Below, one piece after another: positions 7,752 through 64,000 of a stretch of 64,000 nt of DNA. This stretch comes from Torpedo marmorata. Lineage: Eukaryota. Location of the stretch: positions 38,626,001 to 38,690,000 of the forward strand of contig OZ360232.1 in the NCBI GenBank assembly GCA_977017645.1, written 5' to 3'. Under the pieces are notes generated by a model. It was not told the origin of the DNA and ran no database searches. It saw nothing but the letters and a program-made list of their open reading frames with translations. A program made the position numbers and the translations under genes. Numbering within the stretch: the stretch's first letter is position 1; each line of letters starts with the position of its first letter.

Positions 7752-10220
7752 ATGGGATATTTTCAAATATTTTGGAAGTTATACTGGCAACTGGTGTATT
7801 GTGTTTGTTTCGACTGGGCTGTGGCTTCTGGACCTATTCGTTACTCGATTCCCGAAGAGGGGCAACTCGGTGCCTTTGTTGGAAATATCGCAATCGATCT
7901 GGGACTAAGTGTAAAGGAGCTCTCAGCTCGCAATTTTCAGATCGTGCCTCGCTCCCGGAAACAATATTTTGAGGTAAATTCAGACAATGGAATTGTGTTT
8001 GTTAAAGATAAAATCGACAGGGAGCAGTTGTGTGGAACGAGCGCCTTGTGCACGTTGTCTTTGGAGGCTTTGATTCAAAATCCCTTAACTGTGTATCACA
8101 TTGAAGTGGAGATACTTGATGTAAACGACAATGCTCCCAGCTTCCCGAATCGCCAGTTTCGTCTTAAAATCTCAGAGCTTGCTGCACCGGGGGCGCGCTT
8201 CGCCTTGGAGTGCGCCCACGATCCGGACGTTGGAACCAATTCATTGCAAAGCTACCAGCTGTCTCCTAATGAATACTTCGGATTAAATATTGACTCGCGT
8301 GGTGGGGATGGTAAATTGCCGGTATTGGTGTTGGAACGACAGTTGGACAGAGAGAAGCAAGCGACACACAAGTTGGAACTGCACGCCCAAGACGGGGGGC
8401 TTCCTGCTCAGACTGGTACTGCTGAAATAATAATTGTAGTGCAGGACGAAAACGACCACGCACCCGTCTTCCCAAACTCCGTTTACAGAATTAGTCTCGT
8501 AGAAAACGTGCCGAAAGGAACACTGGTCATCAAATTAAGCGCCACTGATTTAGATGATGGTCCTAATGGAGACATTTTATACTCTTTCAGCAGTCATGCG
8601 TCTGTTAGAGTCCGTGGTTTGTTTTCTGTGGATTCCAAAACAGGGGAAATCAGAGTAAAAGGAAATCTGGACTATGAGGAAGACAGTATATTTGAGATTA
8701 ACATACAGGCCTTGGATCAGGGCACTAATCCAAGTCCCGGATACTGCCACGTTCTGGTTAATATTATCGATGTCAATGATAATGCCCCAGAGCTGAAGGT
8801 AACGTCTTTATTCAGCCCTGTCCGTGAGGATTGTCCGTCCGGGACGGTGGTCGCTCTGATCGGTGTATCGGACAATGACTCTGGGGCAAATGGACAGGTT
8901 GAGTGTGAAATCGCACCCGGATTGCCTTTCAGACTGGATTCATCGTTGAGGAATTACTTCAGATTACTAACTCAGCAGTTGCTGGACAGAGAAAATACCT
9001 CACGCTATGACATTCCTGTTACGTGCCGTGATTTAGGATCTCCTCCTCTGGCGTCCAAGAAAATCATCACCGTGGAAATTTCGGATATAAACGATAATGC
9101 GCCGCACTTTACGCAGCCTTCCTATACGGCTTACGTGATGGAGAACAACATTATTGGGGCGTCAATCGTCACCGTGACCGCTCTTGATCTAGATATGAGC
9201 CAGAATTCTCAATTATTTTACTCAATTCTGGACACCCATGCACTGAGCGAACCTGTGTCCACTTACATCAGGGTCAATTCCAAAGACGGCGTCATATTGG
9301 CTCAGAGAAGCTTCGATTACGAGCAACTCAAAAATTTTCAGATCCAAGTCCGGGCCAGCGACTCTGGAGACCCGCCGAAAATTGGCACCACGTCGGTGGA
9401 TGTAATTATCCTTGACCAAAATGACAACGCCCCCGTGATTGTGTACCCTGCCACAGAGTATGGTTCAACGGCATTGGAAACAATAGCACGGTTCGCAGAG
9501 CCAGGCTATCTGGTCACCAAGCTAACCGCCAATGATGCTGACTCGGGCCAGAACGCACGGCTCTCTTACCAGATCTTCCAGTCGACTGACCCCGGACTTT
9601 TCACCATCTCACCTGATACGGGAGAAATTTGGACGGTCCGCAGCTTCACAACGAAAGATGCGAACAAGCAAAGGCTGATAGTTGTGGTAAATGATAATGG
9701 GACGCCGACACTTTCTGCCACAATGACCCTCATCCTATCGGTGGCAGAAGATGACACAGAAATTCTTTCTCGTGTGAACAATTTATCTGAAGATGCTGGA
9801 TTAACATATGATGTCAGTTTTTACTTAGTTTTATCTTTGGGGATAATCTCATCCACTCTTTTTGTGATTTTAATTGGCCTTGCCGTCACTGTGCACAAAA
9901 ACAGAAACGGTTTTGGCGGGTGTATTTGTTCCCTCGATACATGCTGTTGCTTTCCAGCAAGATCTTCGCTGAACGGTTTCCAAAAGAACAAAAGAAATAT
10001 CCAGATACCTCCGAATTATGTGGAAGTATTTGGGGGCGATCCTCTTTCTCAAAGGTTCCGCTACGGGACCTGCTCCACTTACAGTTCGAGCAAGGAAGAG
10101 TTCCTGTACTCCAAACGGTGCAGATCATCAACAGGCAGGAATGGTGCTGGGGGCGAAATTGCGTGCAATAATGAACAATCACAGTCATCACTTTATAACA
10201 ATTGTAACAACATTAGTCAG
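7752..10220 (+). CDS. Pcdh: Clustered protocadherin variable exon V2
   Basis: ORF 7743-10268, first in-frame ATG 7752; six cadherin repeats, TM, QIPPNYVEVFGGDPLSQ motif; phase-0 donor CAG|GTGAGA at 10221. Confidence 0.95.
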
Positions 10221-15479: not shown

Positions 15480-17933
15480 ATGAGATGTTATAATATAGTT
15501 TGTTTCTTAAAATGGGGACTGCTGTATTACAGTTTTATCGTCTGGGAGCGAGTTTTAGCGGAGATTCATTATTCGATTCCTGAAGAATTGCAACGAGGCG
15601 ATTTTATTGGGAATATTGCAGACGATTTAGGTTTAGATGTTAAACAGCTCGCGGCTCGGAATTTTCGTCTTGTATCGGGTCAAAGAAAGCAGTATTTGGA
15701 AGTAAATCTAAACAATGGAGTTTTGTTTGTAAAGGAGAAAATTGACAGGGAGGAATTGTGTGGTGCAAGCCTGACTTGCGTTCTCTCTTTGGAGGCTGTG
15801 CTTGAAAGTCCTCTTAATCTGTACCAAATCGAAGTGGATATTCTGGATATCAACGACAACTCTCCCAGTTTCCCAAAAAGACAGGTCCGCCTGAAAATCT
15901 CCGAGTTTACTGCGCCAGGAGCGCGCTTCCCCCTGGAGAGCGCTCATGATCCGGATATTGGAACCAACTCCGTTCGAACCTATGAGCTGGTGACAAATGA
16001 GTTCTTCACATTAAATGTTGAAGATGGAATTGCAGATTGGAAGCTGCCAATTCTCGTATTGGAACAGCCCTTGGACAGGGAAAAGCATTCGACTCACAGG
16101 CTCCTGCTCCAAGCCAAAGATGGCGGGGACCCGGAAAGATCAGGCACCGCCCAAATTAACGTCGTGGTGGAGGATGCCAACGACAATGCGCCGGTATTCT
16201 CTCGGTCGGTTTACACGATCAGTCTATTAGAAAATGCGACCAAAGGGGCTTTGGTACTGCAGATTAATGCCACCGATTTGGATGACGGCGCCAATGGAGA
16301 GATTACGTACTCCTTCGGCAGCCGTACCTCTGCCAGAGTCCGAGAGATTTTTGGTATGGATCCTCAAACTGGTGAAATAAAACTGAGCGCGAATTTAGAT
16401 TATGAAGAAAATAGTGCGTTTGATATTATGGTACAAGCAATGGACAAGGGCTCCAACGCCATCCCAGTATACAGTCGCATTTTATTGACTATTTTAGATG
16501 TAAATGATAACGCGCCTGAAATAACTCTAACATCTTTATCAAGCCCAGTTCCAGAGGATTCTCTGCCTGGAACTGTGGTGGCTCTGGTCAGTGTTTCTGA
16601 TAGAGACTCTGGCAACAATGGACAATTTCAATGCCACATAGAAAATAAAGTGCCTTTCACGCTGGATTCGTCGTCCAAGAATCACCTGAGATTGCTCACC
16701 CACGATGCCCTGGACCGAGAATTCGTCTCCATGCACAACGTAACTATCATCTGCAGGGATGAAGGAACTCCGGCTCTCAGCACGATCAGAACGATCCCGA
16801 TTGAGATTTCGGACCGAAACGATAACTCGCCACAATTTTCGCAACCTTTGTTCACGGTGCATGTGATGGAGAACAATCATATTGGTGCCTTGATATCCTC
16901 AGTGACAGCATTTGATCCAGACGTGGGTGAAAATGCTCGGCTATCGTACGATATTCTGCAGAATTGGGTGCAGGGTCAGTCAGTAAACAATTACGTCTAT
17001 ATTAATTCAGAGACTGGCAATATATATTCCTATAAAACATTTGATTATGAGCAGTTAAAATCCTTTCAGATCCAAGTTGAAGCGCGTGACCATGGAGTCC
17101 CATCGCTTTCCAGCAATGTTTCCGTAGACGTTATCATTCTTGACCAGAATGATAACGCTCCAGTGATCGTTCATCCATTAATCGAGTACGGGTCAACTAC
17201 CAAAGAGGTTGTATCCCGATCGGCGGAAGCAGGCTATCCAGTAACAAAAGTTACAGCAACGGATGCCGATTCGGGACAAAATGCTCGCTTATGCTATCGT
17301 ATCCTCCATGCCACTGACTCGGGACTTTTTACTATTTCTGAGGACACGGGGGAAATATGGACAACTCGTGCTGTTAGCAATACCGACGCAACAAAGCAAA
17401 AATTGGTTATCCGAGTGAATGACAATGGGACACCAGCACTTTCTGCTTCGATTACTATAATCTTGTCATTAGTAGACGGTGAAGAAGCGTTATTGTCTGA
17501 CAGAAGCAGTTTGCTGCAAAGGTCCAATGTTGCTTCTGTTACCAGCCTTTACTTAGTCGTTTCATTAGGAATGCTATCGTTCATTTTTCTGGTGATTTTG
17601 ATTATTCTAGCTGTTAAAGTTCACAAAAGCAGAAATGTGTTCGAGGACCACAGCTGCGTCCTGGGCGCTTGTTTTGCCTTCGGTCCACGACAATCGCTGA
17701 ATGGAGTTCAGAAAGCCAGCCGCAATCTTCACATTGCTCCCAACTACGTTGAAGTATTTGGTGGTGATCCGCTTTCACAGAGTTACCGCTACGAAACCTG
17801 TTCCATGGCACGTTCAGCAAAGGGAGACTTGGTGTTCCCCAACACCTGCGGTTCCTGGAAGGGGACCAATGAAGTTATTGCACAGAGAGGAGCTGTATTA
17901 TTCAAAACTTGTGAGAATTCTGTTCTTTCTGAG
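15480..17933 (+). CDS. Pcdh: Clustered protocadherin variable exon V3
   Basis: ORF 15459-17972, first in-frame ATG 15480; full EC1-6/TM architecture; phase-0 donor GAG|GTGAGA at 17934. Confidence 0.95.
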
Positions 17934-22573: not shown

Positions 22574-25018
22574 ATGGAATTTTATAAATTTTATTGGCTA
22601 TTGAAATGGCAACTTTTATACTGTATTATCCCCTACTGGCAAATAATTTCTGGACAGATACGTTATTCGATTCCTGAAGAATTGAACGTCGGTGCTTTTA
22701 TTGGGAACATCGCAGAGGACCTGAAGTTGGATGTAAAAGAACTCTCAGCTCGCGGCTTTCAAATTGTGCCGGGACCGAGTAAGCGGTATATAGACGTAAA
22801 TGTAAACAACGGGGTTTTGTTCGTGAGGGAAAAAATGGATAGAGAACAGTTGTGTGGACCGAACCTCGCTTGCACGTTGTCTTTGGAAGCAGTGATTGAA
22901 AACCCTCTTAATGTGTACCATTTTCAAGTGGACATTTTGGATGTGAATGATAATGCCCCGAGTTTTCCAGAGAGAGAATTCAGTTTGGAAATATCAGAGG
23001 TGGCTTCTCCTGGAACGAGCTTCGCTCTGGAGTGCGCACACGACCCTGACGTTGGAACCAACTCAGTGCAAAACTACCAACTAGCAGACAACCTCTATTT
23101 CTCCCTTGATGTTGAGACCCGGGGTGGCGACGAAAAGTTGCCAGTTTTAGTCCTGGAAAGACCGCTGGACAGAGAAAAGGAAAATACTCACAGGCTGGTT
23201 TTGTTTGCCAAGGACGGAGGGGTTCCTGAAAGATCAGGTACTGCTGAAATAGTAATCGGTATAGAGGATGCCAATGACAATGCGCCTGTTTTCCCCCAGC
23301 CGGTGTACAGGGTGAGTTTGCGGGAGAATGCGCCGAAAGGAACATTAGTGATCAAACTGGATGCCTCCGATTTGGATGCTGGTCTCAACGGGCAGATTGT
23401 GTATTCCTTCAGTAGTCATACTTCGAATAGAGTTCGAGAACTGTTCGGGCTAGATTCAAATAGTGGCGAAATCAGAATTAAGAACCGTTTGGATTACGAG
23501 GAAAACGATGTTTTTGAGATTAACGTTCAAGCAAAAGATAAGGGTCCTAACGCAACCCCCGTATACTGTCGCGTGCGGGTTAACATTGTTGATGTGAATG
23601 ACAACGCTCCTGTAGTAACACTGACATCTTTATTCAGTCCTGTCAGTGAAGATTCCCTTCCCGGCACCGTGGTGGCTCTGATTAGTTCAACAGACAAGGA
23701 TTCGGCTGAGAACGGGCGCGTGGATTGTGAACTCCAAAACGACCTCCCCTTTAAACTAGAATCATCTTTAAATAACTATTACAGACTGGTTACCCGGGAG
23801 GTACTGGACCGTGAACATGCATCAGCCTACAACGTAACTGTGGTGTGCAGCGATGCGGGGATCCTTCCACTGGTATCCAACAAAACAATCCTGGTGGAGG
23901 TCTCGGATATAAACGATCACCCACCTCATTTTACACAGTCTGTATATACGGCTTACGTGATGGAGAATAACGCCATTGGTGCGTCCATATTCTCTGTGAC
24001 TGCTTCAGATCGAGATTTACATAGAAACGCCCAACTGTCCTACGTTATTTTGGATACTCAGATTCAGGGGATGTCAGTGTCCACGTACGTCTCAATAAAC
24101 CCGCACAGTGGTGTCATATTTTCGCAGAGAAGTTTCGATTACGAGCATCTCAAAAACTTTGAGGTCCAAGTTCAGGCACGAGACTCTGGATCCCCGCCAC
24201 TTTCCGGCAATGCTTCAGTGAATGTGGTCATCTTGGATCAGAATGACAATGCGCCGGTGATCGTGCACCCATTACCTGAATTCGGCACCACTGCTTTGGA
24301 GACGATATCCCGGCTGGCTGAACCAGGCTACCTGGTTGCCAAGGTTTCTGCCACAGACAGTGACACTGGCCGGAATGGTCGCCTTGCTTTCCAGATCCTC
24401 CAAGCGACTGATGTCGGCCTCTTTACCATTTCACCGGATACAGGGGAAATCTGGACAATTCGCAGTATTAGGAAGAAAGACGCCGCTAAACAAAGGTTGG
24501 TCATCTGTGTTAAAGATGACGGATCACCACCTCTTACAGCCACAGTGACAATCATCTTATCTTTAGTTGGAAATGACAGACAAATGCTCTCAGATGCGAA
24601 TGGTTCCTCTGATGACTCCGTGTTTGCTTCTGACGCCAGATTTTACCTTGTAATAATTCTAGGGCTAACATCATCCGTGTTCCTAATCATTTTGATTATG
24701 CTGGCCGTTAAGGTCCATAGAACTTCTTCTCTTGGCGCATGTGGCTGCTTAACAGCAAGGCCCTCACTCCGTGGATTGCACAGAGGCAATAGGAGCCTTC
24801 AGATACCACCAAACTATGTTGAGGTGTTTGGGGGTGACCCACTTTCTCAGAGTTTCCGCTACGATTCATGCTCAACTTCACATTCTGTAAAGAGAGATGT
24901 CAGGCTGCCCAACAGTGGATCTACACGTAAGAATTATACTCCTAGTGGCATTTTGGGAAATGGCGATACCTTACAAACTCCCAATTCTACGCAGTACAGG
25001 AACATTGTAAATAATGAG
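22574..25018 (+). CDS. Pcdh: Clustered protocadherin variable exon V4
   Basis: ORF 22553-25087, first in-frame ATG 22574; full architecture; phase-0 donor GAG|GTGAGG at 25019. Confidence 0.95.
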
Positions 25019-26399: not shown

Positions 26400-28841
26400 A
26401 TGGGATATTCTAAAATATATTGGCTGATAAAATGGTCACTTTTTTGCTCTGTGTTATCACCCTGGATTCTGGTTTCGGGACAGATTCGCTATTCAATTCC
26501 TGAAGAGCTGCAACTGGGTGCCTTTGTTGGAAATGTCGCAGAGGATTTGGATTTAGACGTAAAAGTCCTGGCGGCCCGCAGTTTTCGGATTGTTTCTAGT
26601 TCCCGGAAGCAGTATCTTGATATCAATTTGGACGATGGAAATCTTTATGTGAAAGGAAAAATTGACAGGGAGCAGCTCTGCGGGTCGAACCTCGCATGCA
26701 CGCTGTCCTTAGAGGCAGTGATCGAAAATCCGTTGACCGTGTACCATTTACAAGTAGAAATTCTGGATGTAAACGACAACGCTCCCAGTTTTCCCCAAAC
26801 CCAATTCCGCTTGGAAATCTCAGAGGTTGTGGCACAAGGAGCACGCTTTGCCCTTGAGTCTGCTCATGATCCAGATGTTGGAACCAACTCTGTGCAGACA
26901 TACCAGCTGGACGATAACGAGTATTTCACCATAGACATTCAGTCACGCCGTGGAGATGGCAAGCTGCCGGTGTTAGTTTTGCAAAAGCATCTAGACAGGG
27001 AAAAGCAAACGATCCACAACTTAGTCCTGATTGCCAAGGACGGAGGCATCCCTGAAAAATCGGGGACGGCTCAGATCGTGGTTATCGTGCAGGATGCGAA
27101 TGACAACACGCCAGTGTTCCAACAATCGGAATATAGGACGAGACTGTTGGAAAATACACCAAAAGGAACTCTGGTAATCAAACTAAACGCTACTGATTTA
27201 GACGATGGGCCTAATGGAGAGATTGTTTACTCTTTCAGTAGCCATGCCTCTCCCAGAGTTCGGGAAATGTTTCGTGTGGATTCCAGAACTGGGGAAATCA
27301 GGGTTAAAGGGAATTTGGACCACGAGGAAAACGACGTTTTTGAGATTAATATACAAGCGACTGACAGGGGGTCTTTTGCAACGCCTGCCTATTGCGAGGT
27401 GTTGGTGGATGTTATTGACATAAACGACAACGCCCCTGAGGTGAGATTGACTTCTTCATTCAGTCCTGTCAGTGAGGACGCCTTGCACGGGACAGTGGTT
27501 GCTCTGTTCAACGTGGCTGACCAAGACTCGTCAGATAATGGGCAGGTACATTGCCACATTTTAAGTGGCTCTCCCTTCAAACTGGATTCCTCTTTGGCGA
27601 ACTACTACAGACTACTAACAGAGAAACCGCTGGATCGCGAAAATATCTCAAAGTACGACGTTACCGTCGTCTGTAGCGATGAAGGAATTCCCCCTCTCAC
27701 ATCCAAGAAATCCATCCGAGTGGATATTACCGATGTAAATGATAATGCACCACGTTTTATTCATCATTTATACACAGCTTATGTAACGGAGAACAATGCT
27801 ATTGGGTCTTCTATCTTCTCAGTGACAGCCTTTGATCCGGATGCAATGCAGAACTCACAATTGTCTTACTCTGTCTTAGAAACATGGGATCAGGATTTGT
27901 CAGTATCCGCTTACGTGCATATTAATTCGGAAACTGGTGTCGTATATGCTCGGAAAACATTTGACTACGAACAATTAAAAACCTTTCAGATATGTATAGG
28001 AGCGCAGGACTCTGGGACCGTCCCACTGCGCAGCAATGTTACAGTAGATTTTATTATCCTCGATCAAAATGACAATGCCCCAGTCATCGTCCATCCGCTG
28101 CCAGAATATGGATTGACAGCGTTAGAAACCGTGTCGAGGTTGGCGGAGCCTGGTTACCTCGTTGCCAAAGTATCTGCGACGGACGCAGACTCTGGCCAGA
28201 ATGCTCGCCTCACTTATGAGATTTTCCAAGCTACAGACACGGGACTTTTTACCATTTCATCTGACTCGGGAGAAATATGGACTATCCGTGGCATCCTGGA
28301 CAAAGATCTTAGGAGACAAAGTTTGGTCGTTGTTGTGAAAGACAACGGAGAGCCTGCACTTTCATGCACAATCACCATTATTATCTCGGTGGAACAAAGT
28401 AAATCAGAGTTGTTATCGGAAGTGGACAGTTCATCCGATGAAGCAGGTTTGGCTCCGGACACGAGCTTTTACTTGGTCATAGCCTTGGGGTTAACTTCTG
28501 TAATCTTTCTGGTTATTTTGATTGTTCTTGCCATTAAAGTTCACAAAAATACGCAAGACTTTGATGGTAACACCTGCTGCTTTGTGGCAAGAAGTCGAAA
28601 GGCGAGTAGGAGCCTTCAAATACCTCCAAATTATGTTCAAGTATTTGGGGGCGACCCACTTTCTCAAAGTTTCCGCTACGATACTTATTCGGCTTCAAAC
28701 ACACTCAGGGGAGACTTCATGTTCCGCAACACGTGTGGCTCGGCTGAAGGAAAGAATAACGCCAATATCCACCCCAGTAGGAAAGGCGAGATTCCACCAG
28801 TAACAAACGCTTCAAGCTGTAGGAACACTGTGGATAGTGAG
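26400..28841 (+). CDS. Pcdh: Clustered protocadherin variable exon V5
   Basis: ORF 26379-28910, first in-frame ATG 26400; full architecture; phase-0 donor GAG|GTGAGA at 28842. Confidence 0.95.
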
Positions 28842-30053: not shown

Positions 30054-32528
30054 ATGGGACATTGGAGAATATTTTTCTTGAGAAAATGGCATCTGCTGTA
30101 CTATCTATTCTCCTTGTGGGATATAATTTCGGGACAAATTCGTTATTCGATTCCGGAAGAACTGCAAATTGGCGCCTTTGTTGGTAATATCGCGGACGAT
30201 TTAGGTTTAGCCGTGAGAGAACTCTCAGCTAGGAATTTTCGTGTCATGCCCGGTCTCGGGGGGAAATATTTTGACGTAAATTTAGACAATGGAATCATGT
30301 TTGTGAAGGAAAATATTGACAGAGAGCGGCTTTGTGGGTCGAGCCTTACTTGCCTTTTATCTATGGAAGCTGTGGTTGAAAATCCACTAAATGTCTATCG
30401 GGTCGAAGTGGAGATTTTGGATGTAAATGACAACACTCCCAGTTTCCCAGATAATCAATTCGGTTTAGAAATCTATGAAGTGGCGGCCCCGGGAGCCCGC
30501 TTCCCTCTTGAGTGTGCCCACGATCCGGACGTGGGAACCAACTCCCTACAAAGCTATCACCTGGTTGAGAATCAATACTTCGCGCTCGACATTGAGACCC
30601 GCAGTGGGGACGAGAAGCTGCCGGTGTTAACGCTGGAAAGGGCACTGGATAGAGAGAAGGAACCGACGCACAAGTTGCAACTAATTGCAGAGGACGGAGG
30701 GATCCCTCCAAGGTTCAGCACTGCCGAAATATTAATCGCAGTGCAGGACGCCAACGACAACTCTCCTGTCTTCCCCCAGTCGGTGTATAGGGTCAGCCTG
30801 AATGAAAATGTTCCCAAAGGAACACTTGTCATCAAGCTCAACGCCACTGACTTGGATGATGGCCCTAATGGCCAAATCGAGTATTCATTTACCAGCCACA
30901 CCTCGGCAACAGTACGTGAACTCTTCGATCTGAATTCCGAAACAGGGGAAATCAAAGTGAAGGGGAACTTGGACTATGAGGTAAATAGTGCCATTGAGAT
31001 CAATGTTCAGGCAATAGATAAAGGCTCTGCTCCATCACCTGTTTACTGTCGTGTTCATGTGGATATTACCGATGTGAATGATAACTCTCCTGAGGTGACC
31101 GTGACTTCTTTGTTCAGTCCAATTGTCGAAAGCTCTCCGCCAGGGACTGTGATAGCGTTGGTTAGTACCACAGACATAGACTCCGGGAAAAACGGACAGG
31201 TGGATTGTCAAATCCCAAATCACCTCCCCTTTAAACTGAATTCGCCATTAACGAACTATTACAAATTGTTAACCGTGAACCAATTAGATCGCGAAAATAT
31301 CCCCAGCTATGACGTCACCATACAATGCCGTGATTCTGGATCGACTCCTCTAACTTCCAAGAAAACATTGCATGTCGAGGTCTCAGATGTAAATGACAAC
31401 GCGCCTCGTTTTAGCCAATCTTCATACACCGCCTATGTGATGGAGAACAACGTCATCGGAGCCTCTATCATAGCAGTGACGGCTACAGATCCTGATTTGA
31501 ACCAGAATGCCAAAATATCATATTCCATTCCTAGAAACCAGTTCAAGCACGAGCCGGCAGCGAACTACGTGCATGTTAATGCCGAAGCTGGAACCGTTTT
31601 TTCTCAAAGAAGTTTCGACTACGAGGAACTCAAACGTTTCCAGTTCCAGGTGCAAGCGCGGGACAGCGGAGACCCATCGCTCAGCAGCAATGTTTCGGTG
31701 GACATTGTCATCCTGGATCAGAACGACAATGCCCCAGTGATTGTGCACCCTCTACCTGAACATGGATCGACCGTCATGGAAACAATGTCTCGCTCTGCAG
31801 AACCAGGTTATCTGGTTACCAAGGTGTCTGCAATCGATGCTGACTCTGGCCAGAATGCTCGCCTCTCTTACCAGATCGTTCAGGCTACTGACCCAGGACT
31901 TTTCACCATTTCGCCGGACACGGGAGAAGTGTGGACCATCCGTGACATGGTGGAGAAGGATGCGACAAGGCAAAAGTTAAAAATTGTGGTCAAAGACAAC
32001 GGAGCGCCGCCGCTTTCAGCTTCCATGACTATCAGTGTGTCGGTGGTGGATGGGGATGCTCAGCTACTTTCTGGTGTCACGGATTTGACCGATGACGCGG
32101 CTTTCAAGCCCGTGTTGAGTTTTTACTTGGTGATATCTTTGGGCGTAATTTCAACCATTTTCCTGCTGATTTTAATCGTCCTCGCCGTGAAGGTGCATAA
32201 AAGCAGGAATAGGTTTGCTGTTTACAGTTCATACATGGGCGTCTGCTGCTGTTATAAATCAAGAAGTTCTCTCAATGGGATTCAGAAAGCGAGCAGAAAC
32301 ATTCAGATACCTCCGAATTATGTGGAGGTCTTCGGAGGCGACCCTCTTTCTCAAAGTTTTCGCTACGGGACGAATTCAACTTTAGCTTCGAACAAGAGAG
32401 ACTCTGCCTTTCCTAATTCATACAGTTCATCTGCAATGTCATCCAAAGGCGGGTGTGCGCCTCATGAGAAACATATATATCTACACTCGCAACCTCCTGC
32501 AAATTATAGCAATGCTGTGTCTAATGAG
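30054..32528 (+). CDS. Pcdh: Clustered protocadherin variable exon V6
   Basis: ORF 30033-32573, first in-frame ATG 30054; full architecture; phase-0 donor GAG|GTGAGG at 32529. Confidence 0.95.
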
Positions 32529-36899: not shown

Positions 36900-39290
36900 A
36901 TGGGATTGTGTAAAATATATTGTTTTTTGAAATGGCAACTGTTCTGTTTAGTGCTTCCCTGGAACCTGATTTCTGGACAGATACGGTATTCGGTTCCCGA
37001 GGAACTACAGCGAGACGCCTTTGTTGGGGATATCGCTGCTGATTTGGGTTTAGATGTACTACGGCTTTCCGCCCGAAATTTTCGCATAGTGCCCAGTCCC
37101 AAGAAACAGTATTTTTATGTAAAATTAGACAAGGGATTTTTACTTGTGAACCATGAAATTGACAGGGAACAGATCTGTGGTTCAGCCCCCGCTTGCGCAT
37201 TGACTTTGGAGACTGTAGTTGACGACCCTCTGAACGTCTATCATATCGAGGTGGAGATTCTGGACATAAACGACAACGCTCCCCAGTTCCCAAAGAAGGA
37301 GTTGCGTTTGGAAATATCCGAGTTGGCGGCACCTGGAGCCCGCTTCCCTTTGGAGTCTGCTCATGATCCGGATGTAGGCACGAACTCGCTGCAGACCTAC
37401 CGATTGGCTGCAAGCCCATATTTCGAGTTAGATGTGCAGTCTCGCAGTGGGGATAGTAAGTTCCCGGTTCTCGTCATGGAAAGGGCTCCGGACAGAGAGT
37501 ATCAGTCCACTCTGCAGTTGCTGCTGACGGCTCTTGACGGAGGCATTCCTCAACGTTCGGGCACAGCACAGATTATTATCCGCATACTGGATGCCAATGA
37601 TAATGTTCCTACGTTTAGTCAGGCGCTTTACAGAGCTCGATTGTTGGAAAACGTGCCCACAGGAACACTGGTGATCAAAGTCAACGCTACCGATCTGGAT
37701 GAAGGTTCCAACGGAGAGATAATGTATTCATTTGGAAGCCACACTTCGATCAGAGCGCGGGAGATATTCAGTTTAGATCCTAAAAGCGGGGAGATCCGAG
37801 TGAAAGGACCTCTGGATTTTGAAACGGGAACAGAGTTGGAAATGAGTGTACAAGCTGAGGACCAGGGGTTCCATTCTGTGCCCGTGCATTGCGATGTGCT
37901 TGTTGAAATCGTGGATGTGAACGATAACGCACCAGAGATGGCAGTAACCTCTTTGTCCAATTCAGTCGCCGAAGACGTTCCGCCGGGGACTGTGGTGGCC
38001 TTAATCAGTGTCACCGATTCTGACACTGGCGAGAATGGAGAAACCCACTGCAAAATTCCAAATGGCCTTCCTTTTAAATTAGATTCGACGTTTAAGAACT
38101 ATTACCGATTGCTCACTAAAGATGTACTCGACCGAGAAGCGGTTTCTCAATATGGCATCACCATTAGCTGCACAGATGCAGGGTTGCCCGCGCTTACAAC
38201 CAACAAAACCATTCAACTCAAGATCTCAGATGTAAACGACAATCCTCCACAGTTCTCGCAGTCATTGTACACGGCCTATGTGACAGAAAACAATGTCATC
38301 GGCAGTTCCATCTATTCGGTACCAGCTTCAGATGCAGATATAAACCATAATTCCAAACTGTTTTATTCTATTCTTCAGACTCAGGCCGGCGGTTCTCCAG
38401 TATCCGGTTACGTATCCATAAATTCAAATAGCGGCATAATAACCGCTGAGCGTTCTTTTGACTACGAAGAGCTGAAGAAGATTCAGATCGAGGTCCAAGC
38501 AATAGACACTGGAGAGCTCCCACTGAGTGCCAATGTATCCATTAATGTGATCATCTTGGATCAGAACGACAACGCCCCTGTGATCCTCTCCCCAAGTCCA
38601 GAGTACGGTTTGACAGCAGTGGAGACATTATCAAGATCAGCGGAACCAGGTTATCTGGTGACCAAAGTATCTGCTGTGGATGCAGATTCGGGGCAGAATG
38701 CAAGACTTACTTATGAATTGTCCCAGGTTCCTGACCCTGGTCTTTTTACTATTGCGCCTGACACAGGAGAGATCTGGACAATCCGTCGGGTTGTGAATGA
38801 AGATGCAACCAAACAAAGTTTGGTGGTTGTGGTAAAGGATAATGGGATCCCGCCACTTAAGGCCACAGTTAATATAATATTAACACTTGAAGGAAGTGAC
38901 ACAGAAATTCTCTCTGAATTGAGTAGCATCGGTGAAGATCTCGGATTCCCTTCGGACATCAGCCTTTACTTGGTCATTGCTCTGGGAACGATCTCGTCTG
39001 TTTTCCTCGTAATTTTAGTTATCCTGGCTGTTCAGGTCCACAGAAGCAGGAACGCTTTTTACCATCGCAGCTGCACTTTGGACACGTGTTGCATGAGTTC
39101 AACACATTCCCTGAATGGAATACAAAAAGCCAGTGTAAACCTTCAGATCCCCCCGAATTATGTTGAAGTGTTTGGTCGTGATCCACTGTCCCAGGATTGT
39201 TTTTACGAGGTATGTTCCTCACCGGACATATTTCTCAAGATCCAAAATCCAACCGCAAAGGGCAACCGTGTCCCCGTGGCATTAATGTGA
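36900..39290 (+). CDS. Pcdh: Clustered protocadherin variable exon V7 (last before the constant exons; 3' end ambiguous)
   Basis: ORF 36867-39290, first in-frame ATG 36900; intact EC1-6 and TM. Stops at 39290 before the homologous donor AAG|GTGAGG (39347, out of frame); in-frame donor GAG|GTATGT at 39210. Confidence 0.9.
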   Translation: MGLCKIYCFLKWQLFCLVLPWNLISGQIRYSVPEELQRDAFVGDIAADLGLDVLRLSARNFRIVPSPKKQYFYVKLDKGFLLVNHEIDREQICGSAPACALTLETVVDDPLNVYHIEVEILDINDNAPQFPKKELRLEISELAAPGARFPLESAHDPDVGTNSLQTYRLAASPYFELDVQSRSGDSKFPVLVMERAPDREYQSTLQLLLTALDGGIPQRSGTAQIIIRILDANDNVPTFSQALYRARLLENVPTGTLVIKVNATDLDEGSNGEIMYSFGSHTSIRAREIFSLDPKSGEIRVKGPLDFETGTELEMSVQAEDQGFHSVPVHCDVLVEIVDVNDNAPEMAVTSLSNSVAEDVPPGTVVALISVTDSDTGENGETHCKIPNGLPFKLDSTFKNYYRLLTKDVLDREAVSQYGITISCTDAGLPALTTNKTIQLKISDVNDNPPQFSQSLYTAYVTENNVIGSSIYSVPASDADINHNSKLFYSILQTQAGGSPVSGYVSINSNSGIITAERSFDYEELKKIQIEVQAIDTGELPLSANVSINVIILDQNDNAPVILSPSPEYGLTAVETLSRSAEPGYLVTKVSAVDADSGQNARLTYELSQVPDPGLFTIAPDTGEIWTIRRVVNEDATKQSLVVVVKDNGIPPLKATVNIILTLEGSDTEILSELSSIGEDLGFPSDISLYLVIALGTISSVFLVILVILAVQVHRSRNAFYHRSCTLDTCCMSSTHSLNGIQKASVNLQIPPNYVEVFGRDPLSQDCFYEVCSSPDIFLKIQNPTAKGNRVPVALM

Positions 39291-51164: not shown

Positions 51165-51223
51165 GTGAAACAACCGAACACTGACTGGCATTTTGCTCAG
51201 ACTCACAGAGCTGAGCTAAACAG
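51165..51223 (+). CDS. Pcdh: Protocadherin constant exon 1 (59 bp; VKQPNTDWHFAQTHRAELN-S)
   Basis: Poly-T tract + GTAG acceptor, phase-0 entry matching the variable donors, AG|GTACTG donor (phase 2). PNxDW motif and 59-bp size match recalled mammalian Pcdh-alpha/gamma constant exon 1. Too short for the ORF track. Confidence 0.92.
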
Positions 51224-51846
51224 GTACTGGTCATTTTTTAAATATGTTGCTTTGATGCCAGCCTTGCGTGTCCTGTTGCAAACGTGATGTTCATAGATAT
51301 TGCCTGTGATTCATAATAAAAATGGCCATGTTAAATATTCCAGAATGTCTTGTTTGAGGCACTTGGTAAACTGTTGAACTCTTCAAATATTTGGCTACTT
51401 TCTTAAACAGTTAGGAACATGACTGCACTCCAACAGTAGACAGCGGGCTTTCCATTTGTTTTCAGGATGTGGTCATTCAGGGCAAGATCAACATTATTTT
51501 TACATTGTTAATTACTCTTGAACTAAGTAGCTTGTCAGGCTATTTCAGAGGATATTTGAAGTCATTGCTGTGTGTCTTAAGTTATTTATAGGCAGACTTC
51601 CTTCCATAAAGATTATGAATGAGCAACCTGCATTTTTAGGAAAAATCCAGAGACATTTTCATTCAATTACTCTTTTAGGAACATAATTCAAATGTCCCAG
51701 GTACAACGGCGGATTTGAATTAATTTCATTTGATTATCAGAGACCTGTGGAGTTATTGAAGAGAACTGGTAATCAGTCCAGCCTGCACAATCATGCCAGT
51801 CAGTTAAACTGAGCAGAAATGTGTTAAGTGTCCATGTTTGTCATGG

Positions 51847-52330
51847 CAAGTCAAGTGTATTGTCATCTGATTGTACAAGTACAACCCAATGAAATAGCGT
51901 TCTCCGGTCCTCGGTACAAAACATGCAGACACACAACCAGATATATCACACATGAAGACAAACAATACAAATGCAGGACAAATATTACATCTATACATAT
52001 AAATAAATAAATATTGTTTCATGAATATGAGAGTCTCAGATGGTTAGTGTGAGCAGTTCCTTTGGTCGTTCAGCATTCTCACTGCCCGTGTGAAGAAGCT
52101 GTTTGTCAGCCTGGTGGTGCTGGCTCTGATACTCCTGTATCTCTTTCCTCCCGGCAGTGCTGAAAGATGCCGTGTGCAGGGTGGAAGGGGTCCACAATGA
52201 TTTTGTGTGCCCTCTTCAGAAAACTATCCTGGTAGATCACGTCGATGGGGGGAGGGAGACTCCAGTGATCCTCCCTGCCACTCTTATGGTCCTGTGGATT
52301 GACCTCCGATCCATTTATCTGCAGAAACCT
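51847..52330 (-). mobile_element. Rex1/Babar-like LINE 3' fragment
   Basis: Reverse complement of the 52985-53600 element, including the (cttga)n tail. Confidence 0.75.
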
Positions 52331-52984
52331 GTGCTAGTGGGTTGATTTTAGTTAAGATAGTGACACAATTACTACAAATGGTCTTCACATTCCTAATCTA
52401 GAGAGTCAGGGGGGAAATGCAATGTAGATTGCTACCCTTTACGTCCTGTTAGACATTATGCGGACATCAAATGAAAATAACATTTTGAAAGCTCTGTTCT
52501 ATGACCACAGTGGAGAAGAGTATTCGGAACAGTGTTTGGAACTTTGAATCTACACATTAGGAGCACATAGAATTCCCACAGCAGTGACACAGAAAGAGCA
52601 AACCACTTCACAAACTGCCCACTGCCTCAACCTGTCCTGGTAAACCTGCCCCATCCAAAATTAGCCTGATAAACAATCTCTGAACGTTCAAAACTGGAGT
52701 GGAAGCAAGTTAATGCCAAAGTAATAGCCAAATAAGAAGAAGAGTTCTGTCGACCGGACCTATGATATAAAGGCCTGGGTTCAAAACCCACCACAGTAGC
52801 AAGAGAACACAAATTCAATGCATCTAAAATTTAAAAAAAAACAGAACTATTATATTGTCTTAATAGCCCATCTAGTTTACTAAAGCTAACATCAACAATT
52901 CTGTAGTAGAGAGTGGAGAGCACCAAGTTCCTTGGAATTCACTTAACTAGTGACCTATTGTGGACACTCAACATCTCCTCACTT

Positions 52985-53600
52985 CTCAGGAAGGCGCAAC
53001 AGTGATTGCACTTCCTGAGAAGAGGGCAAGGCTACCGGCCACCATTATGTCAACCTTCTTTAGGAGCTCTCTCTCTCTCTCAAGCATCCTGACCGGTTGC
53101 ATCACAGTGTAGTATGGCTGCTGCAGAGAAATGGATTGGAGGTCAATCCACAGGACCATAAGAGTGGCAGAGAGAATCACTGGAGTCTCCCTCCCCCGTC
53201 CCTATTGACGTGATCTTCTGGGATTGTGTCTGAAGGGCGCGCAAAATCATCGAGGACCCCTTCCACCCTGCACACATCATCTTTCAGCTGCTCCTGTTGG
53301 GGAAGAGATACAGGAGTATCAGAGCCAGCACCACCAGGATGAGGAACAGCTTCTTCCCACGGGTAGTGAGAATGCTGAACGACCAAAGGAAATGCTCACA
53401 CTTACCATCCAAGACTCTCATATTCATGAAACAATATTTCTTTATTTATTTGTATAGATGAAATCCTTGTCCTGCATATGTATTGTTTGCCTGTACTTGA
53501 GTTATGTCTGCATGTTTTGCAACGAGGACCAGAGAATGCTATTTTGTCAGGTTGTACTTGTACAATCAGATGACAATAAACTTTTGACTTGACTTGACTA
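52985..53600 (+). mobile_element. Rex1/Babar-like LINE 3' fragment
   Basis: Encodes KIIEDPFHPAHIIFQLLLLGKRYRSIRASTTRMRNSFFPRVVRMLN, typical of the Rex1-type RT C-terminus; tail caataaac(ttgac)n. Confidence 0.78.
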
Positions 53601-54919
53601 GTGGGGAACATCTGATTTTCTTACCTCACTTTGAAGAGACTCTGGCCTCAATTAAAAAGGATTGATTTTTATCACCTTCTACAATGGTCTTGCACTGTGT
53701 TAGTCAGGTCTCCAACATCTATACCTTGTGTAAGAATAAAAAATATCATATAAAATTAAATCTGAGGACTAATCAATGCTAAGAATTGACTGCCAGGTTA
53801 GATAGTGGTTTATTTCAAAATCACTTAAATGGAACAACCAGGAAGATGAAACAAAGTGAGATATTTTTGGGTAACTGAGGATTTACCATACTGATTTCTT
53901 CATCGATAATATTTCTCAAATTTTAACATAAAACTGCAATAAACAACACCAAGCAAAGTATCTGCAACATTAACAAACCGAATGTGCAATTTGGTTTCTT
54001 TTTATGCATTTGCTAAGTAGTTTTTTTTCACATTATCTCATTTGAAAATAAGCTTAACTTCATTTCTGCTTGCAGGCATGCATTTTTTTTCACAGACTTC
54101 TCACATTGGTTTGCATAATAGTACCCTTATGGATCCTATGGGGTGGTTTAATCTACAGGAGGACTGACATACTGATCTCAATATGGAATGCTGATTCCAC
54201 ATTCTTTTCCATCTCACCCACTTTAGCTTCTTCCTCTCATTCTTTTGATACCCAAAGCAGTCTATAATACGGCCAGTGGTCTGAGCATGCACTTAATTTT
54301 GTTAGGTTGAGTCTGAATGATGCATTGATGCATTATGCAAGCGAGAGTAAAGCTGGAATATTTATTGAAATCCTTGTGTTTTTAACATTAAATAAGTGTC
54401 TACGTACATCACTAATGTCAGAATATTCTTTGGTAGAAAGCAGATCTTTTCAATTACCTTGCAATTTAATAACAGTACACTGCCAAGTGTTAAGGGTTAG
54501 GACCGGAAAGGAACATTTCCTGGTCCTAAAGGCAGAGCAATAAATGATAATCGTTCAAATAGAGACCACACACATACAAGTTAAAATGTCTCATCTGCAG
54601 GCAGATGGTATTGATACACCAAGTTACTATGGAGTGATGCTAAAATACACGCCTTCATTTTCATTGCATAAATATTTAGTATTTTGGCTTTTATCCTGAG
54701 TGCAATCCAAAAACGAGCTATCAAGAAAATACACCACACATCAATCTGCCTCTCTAGAGAAGGAATTGGTTTCAGGAACACACAAACCAATTGACTTGTT
54801 ATTTCAATTGCTACTTTCAATATTTTCAATTTTAGTTTTGGTCTTCAAATAAGTTACTTCAGCTTGTTACTCTGGATAATTCAGGGATTATCTCCCTAGA
54901 AAGTACATGGTTCATAGAA

Positions 54920-55470
54920 AAATAGAATCACAGAAACATACAGCATAGAAACAGGTCCTTTCTGCCCACCTTGTCTATTTGCACGAATCCATTGACCTGC
55001 ATTAGGCCCTTATCGCTGTTTTCTTTATCCATATGCTTGTTCAAATATACATATATCCACCACTTCCACTGACACATTATTCCATATGCCCACTGCTCTC
55101 TGTGCAAAATCATAACCCCTTGGACCCCTTTAGTTCTTTCCCTCTCAAAAGAATGCCCTCTAATTTTATAATCTGCTGCCTGGAGGGAAAAAAGGACTGA
55201 TTACCTACCTTATCTATGCCCCTCATAATTTTATCAACTCCGATGGAGTCACTCCTCAGAGTCCCAAGTTCCAGTGAGAATAAAGCCTGCCTATCCAATC
55301 TCTCCTTATTAATACAACCCTCTATTCTAGACAACATCCTTGTGAAGCTCTTTTGCTCTCTCTCCATTGCCTCCACTTCCTTTAGCATGGTTAGCAACAT
55401 GGTACAAACACTTTAATTGCTGACTAAGCAATGTTTTGCACAACTACAACATAATATCCCAACTCCTATA
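54920..55470 (-). mobile_element. Old CR1 LINE 3' fragment
   Basis: Minus ORF EREQKSFTRMLSRIEG...ERLDRQALFSLE. Confidence 0.7.
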
Positions 55471-56170
55471 CTTGCTGTGTGGATTTACTGTATATTGTGT
55501 TTTTAAGCGTTATGGGCTGAATCACTGTAACAAACATTTCTGCATAGTTTCCAATCACTCCTCAAACTTGCCTAGGCACTTTATGGCATGATTTCTACAT
55601 CACTCTATGGCATCCATTCCATTGGACTATTCAAGGAAATTTGGGCTAAACTCTCCTGCAAGCACCTGTTGTTCGAATAACAGAGTCTTACTAGTTTAGA
55701 ATCAAACTGTAATGGCTGCCAGATAAGTACTCCATTTATCCTCATCTTTAGGCCAGCTCCCAGCTCCCAAGTAAACAGTAACACCTACAACATGCCCCTA
55801 TCCTAACTCCTAATCTCCAAGCAGTCTTCCCAACCCCATGGAAAACCCTAATGCTGATATCCCATATCCAAATGGTTGCTCGGAACTTCGGACCCCAATT
55901 CTCCATTTCAACAATGCCAGTTCCAATCCATAATCCCAAACAAATGATGCCTATGTACACCTCCAATTTCCTTCAAACAATGCTCATCCAATTCCTCCCT
56001 TCAACACCCCTCACCCTTCACCAGCTACCATTCCCATGCCCCCACCCAAGTCACAGCACTGGCCTAAAGAAATGCTTCATAGCCTGCCAAGCCCACAACC
56101 CATGAATGAATTAAAAAATAATCTGCTTCTTGCATCCTTTCAGGAAATCAATTCTCAAACGTATTATTAA

Positions 56171-56355
56171 AACACAAAAGTCTGCAAACACCGTGGTTGA
56201 AGTAAAAACACAATGCTAGAGACATTCAGCAGGTCAAACAGTGTCCTTTATATAGCAAAGATACAGATGAAGGGCTCAAGCCCGAAACGTTAGTTATGTA
56301 TCTTATAAAGTACACTGTTTCACCAGCTGAGTTTCTCCAGCATTGTGTTTTTACT
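56171..56355. mobile_element. Penelope-like element terminal remnant with inverted ends
   Basis: gtaaaaacacaatgctagagacattcagcaggtcaaacagtgt is inverted relative to acactgtttcaccagctgagtttctccagcattgtgtttttac; central gatgaagggctcaagcccgaaacg. Confidence 0.75.
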
Positions 56356-56889
56356 CAAATAGATTAATTAACTAATTGTTGTAAAAACAAAAGGAATTCA
56401 CCATTGAGTCCTTTTGGCAATTATATTAATTATCTCTTCCCCAGAAACAATATCACCTCATCCTCATGCACTCTAACATAATTAATCGGAATGCTTCTTA
56501 TGGACAATTCATGCTGATCTGATACCCTGCTTGGACCCATTCTCTTATACATGAAGAACCTAAAACAGCCATCTGCATTGAGTAATAAATAACATGGCAA
56601 GTCAAAGAGCTTGTTTAAAGAGTTTAGCAGCAATTTCAGGAAGGAAGGTGAGTTAGAGAGTTAAAGGTTTAGCTCAGGATTTTTTATCATTCCTACTATA
56701 TTTGTGTTGCTGGCAAGGCCAGCATCTAGGCCCCATCTATAATTGCCCTGAGGAAGCTGATGTTACTTTTGTATGTCTCCACAGTCCTCCTTGTGAAGGT
56801 AATTTGATACAGATGCCTCAAACCAGGTATCACAGATTTGGAACCATGGGCCAAGATATGGAATGTACATCACAGAGTCACAGAACTTC

Positions 56890-57290
56890 ATGTACTATCC
56901 CACCCAGACTACCCGCAAATTGGAGGAACAACATCTCATTTTCCGTCTGGACACTCTCCAGCCAGATGGCATTAACATTGACTTTTCTGCTTTCCACTAA
57001 CCTGCTTGTCTTTTCCTTCCCCTCCCCTGTCCTTCCTGTTTTTTTCCACCCACCCAGCCATCACTCCTCCCCCTCTTTACTGCTGTCCCCTCCCTCCTTT
57101 CTCCACCTATCATCTCCTGCTTTTGCCATCCCCCTTCCCCCCCTCACTCTTTTGTTCGGACGCCTGCCGGCATTTTCTCATACTTTGATGATGGGCTCAA
57201 GCCCGAAATGTCGGTTATGTATTTCTACCTTTGCTACATAAAAGACACTTTTTGACCTGCTGAGTTTCTCCAGCATTTGTTTTTATTTCT
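56890..57290 (+). mobile_element. Penelope-like element 3' fragment (GIY-YIG endonuclease C-terminus + terminal repeat)
   Basis: 56911-57000 translates TRKLEEQHLIFRLDTLQPDGINIDFSAFH*, the LxTLxPxGxN end typical of PLE GIY-YIG domains; followed by a pyrimidine tract and the terminal motif. Confidence 0.85.
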
Positions 57291-57760
57291 ACAGCCCACC
57301 TTGTCTAAGACCACCATCATACCTGTCTGCACTAATCCCACTTGCCTGACCATGACCTTCTAATTCAAGTACCCATTAAAGTTCCTCTATAACGTTGCTA
57401 CTGTTCCTGACTTCACTGCCTCCTCTGGCAGGTTACTCCAGATACCGACTTCTATGTGAAAGAATTATACCCATCAGATGCCTTTTCAACCTCCTCCCTC
57501 TCCACTTAAACCCATGTCCTCTAGTTTTAGATGCACCTAACATGGGAAACAGACACTTGCTATGTACCCTATATAAGCCGTGTAATTTTATACACCTCCA
57601 TCATGTCACCTTTCAGTCTCCAGCAATCCAGGGAAAATAGACCCAGCCTATTCGATCTCTCCAATCCAGATAACATCCTTGTGAATCTTATCTGCACTCT
57701 CAAGCTTAATCACATCCTATAGTGTGGTTACCGGAACTGCACCCAATAAGTGTAGCCTGG
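57290..57760 (-). mobile_element. Old CR1 LINE 3' fragment
   Basis: ccacttaaacccatgtcctctagttt, ccagggaaaatagacccagcctattc, aacatccttgtgaatctt are reverse CR1 3' motifs; boundaries approximate. Confidence 0.6.
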
Positions 57761-58346
57761 ATAGAGAGCCAATAAAGTGTGTTGCTTTGTCCAGGATGAT
57801 TTTCTTCAATAAGCATACCAGCTGCATTCATCCAATTCAAACGAAGAGTACATCACCATGCTCCTGACTTGTGCCTTGCAAATGGTGCAAAGCTTTTAAA
57901 AGTGTCAGAAGGTGAGTCTCTTACCACAAGTAACAGATTTACTGGACTGGCCTAGTTATAGTTCTCATGAATGGTGATGTCTGGGATATTGTCAGTGAAG
58001 AATTCAACAAGAGGAGTGTTATTATATCAAAATCAAGATGGTGGTACTTTCCTTTATTGGAGAAAGGCATTGCTTGGGACTTGCTTGGTACAGTTTTAAG
58101 TGTTGGTGTACAGGAATGGGTGCTGTAAGGTGATAAAGCCATCATCTTCAGGAGAAAAGCCAGGAAAAATTGGGAGGAAAATGTATTTCTGAAAAGATTT
58201 CAAGACATAAGAAAAGAGGGTAAGGTGAATTCATCTTAGAAGATGATATTTATGGCCTAGATTGGCCTAGATACTGGTCTGTGCACCCCTGATTTTCATG
58301 CATTGCTATATGTATTCATTGACCATGCTTCTTGTTGTTTCTGCAG

Positions 58347-58564
58347 TTCCCAGTATCTGGAAGAGGAAGGTGTACAACGTGAAATACAATGTGAAGTCCA
58401 GCGCGAGGTTCAGCGTGAAGCTCCAAGTGAAGTACAATGTGAGGCGCCACGTATCATTCAGCGTGACGTACCGCGTGACGTACCGCGTGACGTGCAGCAC
58501 GCTGCTGAAAAAGATCCTGGCGGACCAAGGAAACCATTGTGTGCGAGACCTCCAGCCATCCCGG
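58347..58564 (+). CDS. Pcdh: Protocadherin constant exon 2 (218 bp) with internal tetrapeptide repeat
   Basis: Acceptor ttgtttctgcAG; phase 2 joins exon 1 (AG+T=Ser). Reads SQYLEEEGVQ...EKDPGGPRKPLCARPPAIP, resembling recalled Pcdh-alpha SVHLEEAG...GPGGP; phase-1 donor G|GTTAGT at 58565. Confidence 0.88.
58378..58497 (+). repeat. Coding 12-bp minisatellite, 10 units
   Basis: REIQ CEVQ REVQ REAP SEVQ CEAP RIIQ RDVP RDVP RDVQ; DNA consensus about CGTGAMGTNCMR. Confidence 0.9.
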
Positions 58565-60078: not shown

Positions 60079-60340
60079 AGCGGTACAGTTAGCATAGCGG
60101 TTAGCGCAATACTGTTATAGCATCAGCGACCGGGGTTTGAATCCGGCGCTGTCTGTAAGGAGTTTGTATGTTCTCCCCGTGTCTGCGTGGGTTTCCTCCA
60201 GGTGCTCCAGTTTCCTTCTCCCCCTTCAAAAGTAAAGGTATCGGGGTTGTAGGTCAAATGGGTGTAATTGGGCAGCACTGGCTCGTGGGCCGAAAGGGCC
60301 TGTTACCGTTCTGTATGTCTAAATTTAAAATTTAAATTTA
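60079..60340 (+). mobile_element. V-SINE, full length
   Basis: TAGCATAGCGG A box, GGTTTGAATCC B box, V-domain and tail colinear with the 13550 copy. Confidence 0.88.
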
Positions 60341-61726: not shown

Positions 61727-62070
61727 TGGCATTAACATTGACTTCTCTGGTTTCTGTTAGCCTACTCCCCTCTCTTCCTCATCCTTCTGTTTTTCCTTCA
61801 GCTCTCAACCTGCTCCCTCCCCATTCACCGAGCGATCACCCCTCCCCCTGTTTGCTGGTGTGCCCTCCCTCCCTTATCCATCTATTACCTCCTGCCTGTG
61901 GGACCGTGCTTCTCCCCCTATCCCTCTCCCCCTACCATTTTGTTCGGGCGCCTGCCCACATTTTGCTCATACTTTGATGAAGGGCTCAAGCCCGAAACAT
62001 TGGTTATTATCTTTGCTATATAAAGTACACCGTTTGATCTGCTGAGTTTCTCCAGCATTGTGTTTTTTTA
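61727..62070 (+). mobile_element. Penelope-like element 3' fragment
   Basis: ggcattaacattgacttctct...ttgatgaagggctcaagcccgaaac...gctgagtttctccagcattgtg, colinear with 56975-57290. Confidence 0.8.
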
Positions 62071-62214
62071 AATTTCAGAAATACCCCGTTTCCACAGTTA
62101 AAAAAACAAATTTGCACTGTGCTAGAAGGTGGAAGTATAGAAAACATCGTATTCAACCACTAGTCTATAGCAGGACAAAAATAGAAAGCAACTGTGACAG
62201 ACAGTTGGTGACAG

Positions 62215-63800: not shown

Positions 63801-64000
63801 CTTTCTGTTAGAACTGGTTCTGATATAACTTCTCTCAGCTATATCTGCTTTTCCTCTCTCTATAGATTCTCTTCTATTTCATATTTACAGCAACTGCGTG
63901 TTTTGCATTCCACAGTTCCAGCGTATATATTATTAGCTCTCTGAGGCCATTTATCTCCCTCTCTTCGTACAACTCCAGCTGTAATTATCAAGATTATCAA

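Follow-up and report, generated by a model that had tools for sequence, protein, structure and literature searches.

A tandem tetrapeptide repeat of narrow unit number in the predicted second constant exon of the protocadherin nu subcluster of cartilaginous fishes

In both the Pcdh-alpha cluster and the Pcdh-gamma cluster, variable exons are joined to common constant exons (PMC7811963). In mouse Pcdh-alpha, FITFGK is a functional WIRS motif that recruits the WAVE complex, and PXXP motifs have been proposed to bind Abi2 (PMC6047886); Pcdh-alpha is also described with alternative C-terminal tails, A, B and O (PMC7339444). In the elephant shark (Callorhinchus milii), nu is reported as one of four protocadherin subclusters and is described as having no orthologue in bony vertebrates, its naming being credited to Yu et al. 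2008 (PMC2764143, PMC4978886). Here we describe an exon of Torpedo marmorata that, judged by homology, is constant exon 2 of the chondrichthyan (cartilaginous-fish) protocadherin nu subcluster, which follows the same plan of variable exons and shared constant exons as do Pcdh-alpha and Pcdh-gamma in mammals. The exon lies at 58347..58564 on the forward strand of the window, the whole 64-kb stretch of DNA that was analysed, and carries a tandem repeat of ten tetrapeptide units.

Seven variable exons are found on the forward strand 5' of the constant region, and all of them have a phase-0 donor that fits the phase of constant exon 1. Five of them (2827..5280, 7752..10220, 15480..17933, 22574..25018 and 26400..28841) run from an ATG to the donor, a sixth (30054..32528), the one on which Pfam domains were checked, encodes cadherin repeats and Cadherin_C_2, and the seventh (36900..39209) is the last before the constant region. 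The best matches of the Torpedo variable exons are batoid proteins, including one of Narcine bancroftii for 15480..17933 (90%, the best among the fetched proteins) and sawfish isoform X19 for 36900..39209 (86%). The cytoplasmic linker of the last variable exon is very short, with about 6 residues from the DPLSQ motif to the donor against 51-58 in the other six, and its sawfish orthologue is alike. LINE-type reverse-transcriptase open reading frames (PF00078) are interspersed between variable exons at 19103-20380, 33689-35941 and 46450-48051, the second being open over 750 codons and the third split by a stop, and an assembly gap of 393 N lies at 32820-33212.

Constant exon 1 (51165..51223, forward strand, 59 bp, AG/GT borders, phase 0 to 2) is followed by an intron of 7123 bp (51224..58346, GT..AG) and then by the exon under study. 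A pyrimidine tract and CAG stand 5' of the latter and GTTAGT directly 3' (an AG/GT exon), and the two constant exons form a single open frame through phases 2 and 1. Coordinates, splice signals and frame all agree with the 218-bp exon of phase 2 to 1, holding 72 whole codons, that an earlier note on this DNA had proposed, and homology and junction contigs point to the same borders. The intron contains a repeated element of about 490 bp twice in opposite orientation (51840-52324 and 53121-53598, 84% identical), and the two copies could pair in the pre-mRNA. It also holds an imperfect palindrome of about 155 bp (56201-56355), with related copies at 57051-57292 and 61826-62067; the contigs of relatives cover the palindrome heavily, so it is taken to be a common mobile element.

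Exon 2 is spliced to constant exon 1 in relatives of T. marmorata. Contigs bridge the joint 51223>58347, skipping the 7123 bases between GT and AG, in all four runs examined, which come from two organisms and two studies; these are four of the five runs listed as containing the sequence (each to a small share), none of the five is recorded as RNA, and the RNA status is the tool's guess. The junction predicted by the earlier note is therefore borne out by relatives and not by the source species' own sample. In addition, two transcript-like Logan proteins (P0023 and P0140) read in a single frame from exon 1 through exon 2 into exons further downstream. Among 186 proteins fetched, mostly gene models and not independent transcript evidence, 125 contain constant exon 1 and 61 gave no exon-1 match, and each of the 125 continues into the whole of exon 2, in keeping with the proposal that every isoform shares it. 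Heptranchias, Heterodontus, Hypanus, Mobula, Narcine and Chiloscyllium punctatum do not enter the counts, their fetched proteins being without the constant exons. The exon contains 18 GT[A/G] and 6 YAG sites, and one of them, GTGAGG at 58439-58444 inside the repeat, has phase 1 like the true donor and if used would shorten the exon in frame. Its use appears in none of the 125 models and in none of the joints listed for the relatives' contigs. An internal splice site that skips the repeat, which would have undermined the earlier proposal, was likewise not seen, the exon being whole in 125/125 models and read through by the contigs from X1, X3 and X4.

The assignment to nu comes from several searches, in which the named subcluster sequences compared were those of nu. 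A search with the exon drew 83 proteins from 536 candidates, matching the full query at 62-76% identity, and the named ones were all elasmobranch protocadherins (1 was unnamed). A search with a variable exon returned elephant-shark proteins named 'protocadherin nu', the only subcluster name borne by Callorhinchus proteins in the 120 matches listed. Sixteen named proteins, nu2-nu17 (GenBank ABV59349-ABV59364; UniProt e.g. B0YNA1), were fetched and have a common tail that includes this exon. In the window search, exon 2 of elephant-shark nu17 aligned at 53% identity without gaps over about 72-73 residues (E 3.6e-16). The elephant-shark exon has the same length (72 aa) and the same flanks, the exon-1 motif is 63% identical over 19 residues, and the Torpedo variable exons are 61-65% identical to nu17. 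Both repeats comprise 10 units with a Cys before an N-containing unit, but their make-up differs: in the chimaera more units precede the Cys unit and fewer follow it, and of the two only Torpedo shows a fresh 3' block of near-identical units.

In RefSeq and UniRef, models from 15 shark and ray species contain the same exon with its repeat, already annotated as coding and 62-76% identical where found in the exon search, but their labels ('protocadherin gamma/beta/10-like', 'Fat 4-like', 'uncharacterized') name neither the subcluster nor the repeat. Nu-tailed RefSeq isoforms of sharks and rays named gamma-, beta-, alpha-C2- or protocadherin-10-like hide the subcluster in this way. The catshark models P0150, P0153 and P0156 join an alpha-C2-like variable exon to an unrelated short tail, and P0152 joins the same variable exon to the nu constant exons. 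When the skate tail was searched with phmmer against 1.84 billion representatives, one cluster was matched, a sawfish protein, and a short-protein search gave 1 match among 49 candidates. By the exon and phmmer searches, whose sensitivity is limited, the nu subcluster appears confined to cartilaginous fishes.

The equivalent exon of mammalian alpha and gamma is 89 bp long. That size was not found in print in our literature search; it gains indirect support from the profile of the mammalian alpha/gamma constant domain, Pfam PF15974 (Cadherin_tail), which matches nu tails on both sides of the repeat and has no repeat positions. Positions 1-38 of the profile match the skate orthologue of constant exon 1 and the start of exon 2, and position 26 aligns with residue 73 of the 11-unit constant domain of sawfish; this shift of about 47 residues fits an insertion of the size of the repeat, as the claim of extra sequence relative to alpha and gamma had held. 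No Pfam family was found on exon 2 itself, a PDB sequence search with the skate constant domain gave no match, and neither query had a usable match in the ESM Atlas.

The translation of 58378..58497 (forward strand) reads exactly as the ten in-frame tetrapeptide units had been given, with the consensus [R/C/H]-[D/E]-[V/I/A]-[Q/P] over units of 12 bp, which is corroborated by Tandem Repeats Finder (TRF) and by unit comparison. TRF reports two period-12 arrays, one of 5.9 copies with 70% matches at 58372-58442 and one of 2.8 copies with 100% matches at 58461-58493. Over 58366-58497 the autocorrelation at lag 12 is 0.63; codon shuffles average 0.30, and 0 of 10,000 attained the observed value, which places the 12-bp periodicity beyond chance. 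Units 1-3 form a 5' block (58378..58413) that is the most conserved and helix-prone part and one unit short of the 11-unit ground pattern. The Cys codon at 58438..58440, in unit 6 of the window (unit 7 of the 11-unit pattern), stands directly before a unit of xN[I/V]Q type. The three near-identical units of the 3' block (58462..58497) mark a site of recent slippage, units 8 and 9 being identical in 12/12 bases and unit 10 matching them in 10/12, against 3-10 of 12 in other pairs. The exon ends in a proline-rich segment (58516..58563) in which a motif scan found three PxxP motifs; sawfish and skate have the same three and the elephant shark two. Charged residues make up 40% of the Torpedo repeat, which has 4 prolines and no aromatic residues, and its 14 CpGs amount to an observed/expected ratio of 1.57 versus 0.23 in the intron.

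Unit number is narrowly distributed across cartilaginous fishes. Taking one sequence per species, 14 of 15 elasmobranchs (4 batoids and 10 sharks) have 11 units and the skate Rhinoraja has 13, and Callorhinchus and Torpedo each have 10; by protein model (n=125), 95 have 11 units, 23 have 10 (elephant shark) and 7 have 13. Of the earlier description as lineage-specific and length-variable, the former holds at the level of cartilaginous fishes and fails for any narrower lineage, the elephant-shark nu proteins having the repeat, and the latter is weak, with a range of 10-13 units in 17 sequences. We likewise rejected a hypervariable coding minisatellite, or copy-number knob, given this range and the uniformity of the three samples available from one relative, a tiny within-species sampling. 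Unit order is also conserved: between batoids and sharks the same unit is identical at 0.68 and different units at 0.44, and 0.68 was reached by 0 of 2000 shuffles of unit order, which indicates that in most lineages the array has escaped homogenisation.

Batoid-shark protein identity is 68% over the repeat (40 pairs), with 81% in units 1-4 and 60% in units 5-11, compared with 74% in the ectodomain, 89% in exon 1, 93% in a downstream cassette exon and 89% in the canonical last exon. As a control, we took the distal linker that variable exons encode in orthologous isoforms, which is 51% identical and of equal length in 7 of 23 pairs; this benchmark excludes two variable-exon groups (one with paralogue-like shark matches, one whose linker has 6 residues) and a single protein that lacks the linker motif. 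Across the 14 species with eleven units, 14 of the 44 columns of the repeat do not vary; 10 of these lie in units 1-4, and unit 3 is invariant throughout. The Cys that precedes the xN[I/V]Q-type unit occurs in 17 of 17 sequences, the elephant shark included. Over 187 units, which are not independent, position 1 is R in 117, C in 52, H in 16 and S in 2, position 2 is D or E in 165 and position 3 is V, I, A, L or M in 173; these counts overstate independent events, since related species share changes. Both C and H are CpG-transition products of CGY, and the spectrum at position 1 fits the decay of CpG by which the R-to-C changes had been explained. The description of the repeat as charge-alternating is poorly borne out, as Arg occupies just 4 of 11 units in zebra and whale sharks and net charge ranges from 0 to -5.

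Closer to Torpedo, the pattern has changed recently. The Torpedo repeat lacks one unit of the 5' block, and its near-identical 3' block ends in an Arg unit at a place where 13 of 14 eleven-unit species have Cys. Relative to Torpedo, one relative (organism A) has 12 bases more before 58404 and 12 fewer after 58440, with 5 other differing letters, 24 gap letters and equal net length, and another (organism B) has 12 bases more in the 3' block in all three of its samples, these gains and losses being deduced from the spacing to the contig ends. Torpedo and organisms A and B, whose totals are 10, 10 and 11 units, are set apart from the 11-unit pattern by at least three single-unit events. Slippage is still active in this lineage, with length kept in a narrow band, and the suggestion of recent slippage stands on the near-identity of the last three Torpedo units and on the single-unit differences between close relatives. 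The exon differences listed between Torpedo and organism B (at least 12) comprise 7 silent and 5 replacement changes. An apparent length polymorphism in organism B, with the insertion listed for samples X2 and X3 and not for X4, was discarded, as X4 also has the 12 extra bases by contig-end distances and the aligner had placed them elsewhere. No within-species polymorphism was seen in this tiny sample, the same extra unit being present in 3/3 samples.

Downstream of exon 2, tblastn gave no match to a further constant exon in 58565-64000, and a later constant exon of the Torpedo cluster presumably lies beyond the 64-kb window. In relatives a last constant exon is present, and any of several exons may come after exon 2. 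The canonical nu last exon of relatives contains FITFGK, the WIRS motif of Pcdh-alpha, about 120-125 residues after the start of the repeat. FITFGK and a Lys run end 29 of the 125 models, and the remaining 96 end in another last exon without FITFGK/WIRS. By analogy, nu may use FITFGK and PxxP as Pcdh-alpha does. At least four tail forms are modelled in relatives, with or without the cassette exon and ending with the WIRS/Lys-rich exon or with another last exon, and they parallel the A, B and O tails of Pcdh-alpha; compared with mammalian alpha and gamma, the nu models have an additional cassette exon of 37 residues and, as an alternative ending, a long last exon. In 99 of 125 models (e.g. P0012, P0160 and P0139) the cassette exon, which is outside the window, comes after constant exon 2, and at 93% batoid-shark identity it is above every other tail part. 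It is present in elephant-shark models and absent from the deposited nu2-nu17. It weakly resembles the start of the canonical last exon (2.8% and 7.9% of 2000 shuffles score equally), may be an old exon duplicate, and is possibly of more interest than the repeat.

Structure prediction places most of the repeat in coil. By charge and hydropathy the Torpedo repeat falls on the disordered side (0.378 versus a boundary of 0.431). AlphaFold2 predicted a helix over residues 4-23 of the exon (mean pLDDT 59) and over residues 7-42 of the whole skate constant domain (mean pLDDT 46.5), the rest being coil in each. In both models the predicted helix, at pLDDT of about 48-61, covers the best-conserved units, the first 3-4. 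Its amphipathicity at 100 degrees is not significant, with a hydrophobic moment of 0.30 versus 0.25 that 33% of 10,000 shuffles reached. A stable charged single alpha-helix or coiled coil was rejected, given a low-pLDDT helix over the first 3-4 units only and the 4 prolines in the Torpedo repeat. Prediction of a two-copy complex of exon residues 1-54 scored 0.00, which is evidence neither way.

We consider it probable, though by no means assured, that the repeat began as an old insertion by slippage and today acts as a spacer, mostly disordered and with a helix-prone first half under selection, that sets the reach of the tail for all nu isoforms. The insertion would have arisen by replication slippage before chimaeras and elasmobranchs split some 400 million years ago, and would put about 40-50 mostly disordered residues after the exon-1 motif and ahead of the effector motifs downstream, namely PxxP at the end of exon 2 and, in the canonical last exon of relatives, the FITFGK WIRS motif and the Lys-rich end. 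The first 3-4 units would probably prolong a transient helix running out of exon 1 under purifying selection, and the Pro-punctuated second half would be looser. Single units are gained or lost now and then, always as whole units, and the effect would lie in the reach and geometry of the tail, equal for every nu isoform, with no copy-number dial. The spacer function is partly a default reading, and selection was judged from protein identity. Several points would count against a spacer: units 5-11 appear barely more conserved than the linker (60% and 51%), the predicted helix is of low confidence, with a hydrophobic moment within the range of shuffles, the conserved 5' block is one unit shorter in Torpedo, and 96 of 125 models are without FITFGK, so that the repeat is not always upstream of the WIRS motif. 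The weak excess of units 5-11 over the linker is also in favour of a near-neutral relic, an old expansion by slippage that a disordered tail could accommodate and that was frozen once point mutations broke its purity, whose apparent conservation would come from slow shark and ray evolution and the need to keep frame. Drift of position 1 by the CpG route, with net charge from 0 to -5, the unit losses and gains tolerated in Torpedo, organisms A and B and Rhinoraja, and a repeat conserved below exon 1, the cassette exon and the canonical last exon are consistent with such a relic. We nevertheless hold it to be rather unlikely, as units 1-4 (81%) exceed the ectodomain (74%) in identity, 14 of 15 elasmobranchs agree in repeat length against 7 of 23 pairs for the non-repetitive linker, the 14 CpGs persist at more than the intron's ratio, and the differences listed from organism B include 7 silent against 5 replacement changes.

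The conservation of the first half also bears on a more specific module, in which exon 1 and units 1-4 would form an inducible helix, with V or I recurring every four residues, as a docking site for a partner or a second tail, and the Cys seen in all sequences would be a modification site (e.g. for S-acylation, or a redox switch). The 14 invariant columns with 10 in units 1-4, the invariant unit 3, the Cys in 17/17 sequences and the helix placed there by both AlphaFold2 models argue for it, and four residues make nearly one turn of a helix, so that whole-unit indels would roughly preserve the face. We regard it as quite improbable, given the pLDDT of the helix, an amphipathicity not above shuffles and the lack of a Pfam family on the exon or a solved relative of the constant domain; in addition, TGY without CpG mutates slowly, and the Cys could have lasted without selection. 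Of clearly low probability, if a little higher than that, is a domesticated slippage repeat in which the same inducible helix and invariant Cys would serve to dock a partner or to fix the tail at the membrane, and about 11 units would act as a ruler to the WAVE-complex (WIRS) motif. Most doubtful by far is the proposal of the earlier note, a lineage-specific, length-variable, charge-alternating module for multivalent binding or condensates whose copy number tunes the subcluster. The differing unit arrangements of Torpedo and organisms A and B, the 40% of charged residues and the presence of the exon in all models speak for it, but those relatives have 10-11 units in total and the 17 sequences 10-13, the extra unit of organism B is in 3/3 samples, Arg is found in 4 of 11 units of two carpet sharks, and the repeat is without aromatic residues and is also present in a chimaera.

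The repeat was already in public records, and what seems undescribed is its narrow 10-13 pattern, its conserved first half, its invariant Cys and its turnover by single units. It belongs to a named subcluster and its sequence is deposited under ABV59349-ABV59364, so the possibility that it had been described before applies to the sequence, and no describing text was found: our literature search returned no title or abstract describing the repeat, the text, figures and supplement of Yu et al. 2008 (PNAS) may show or mention it, and a search on the constraint of repeats in general gave no match. The exon is an orthologue, in another ray, within a known subcluster; it is no new system, its significance is modest, and the repeat alone opens no long-standing question. 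If the domesticated-repeat reading were true, nu would have a clustered-protocadherin signalling element without a bony-vertebrate counterpart, and a tandem repeat would have been domesticated in a neuronal identity receptor. The exon offers a test case for the freezing or co-option of coding repeats and points to the unstudied signalling tail of shark nu protocadherins.
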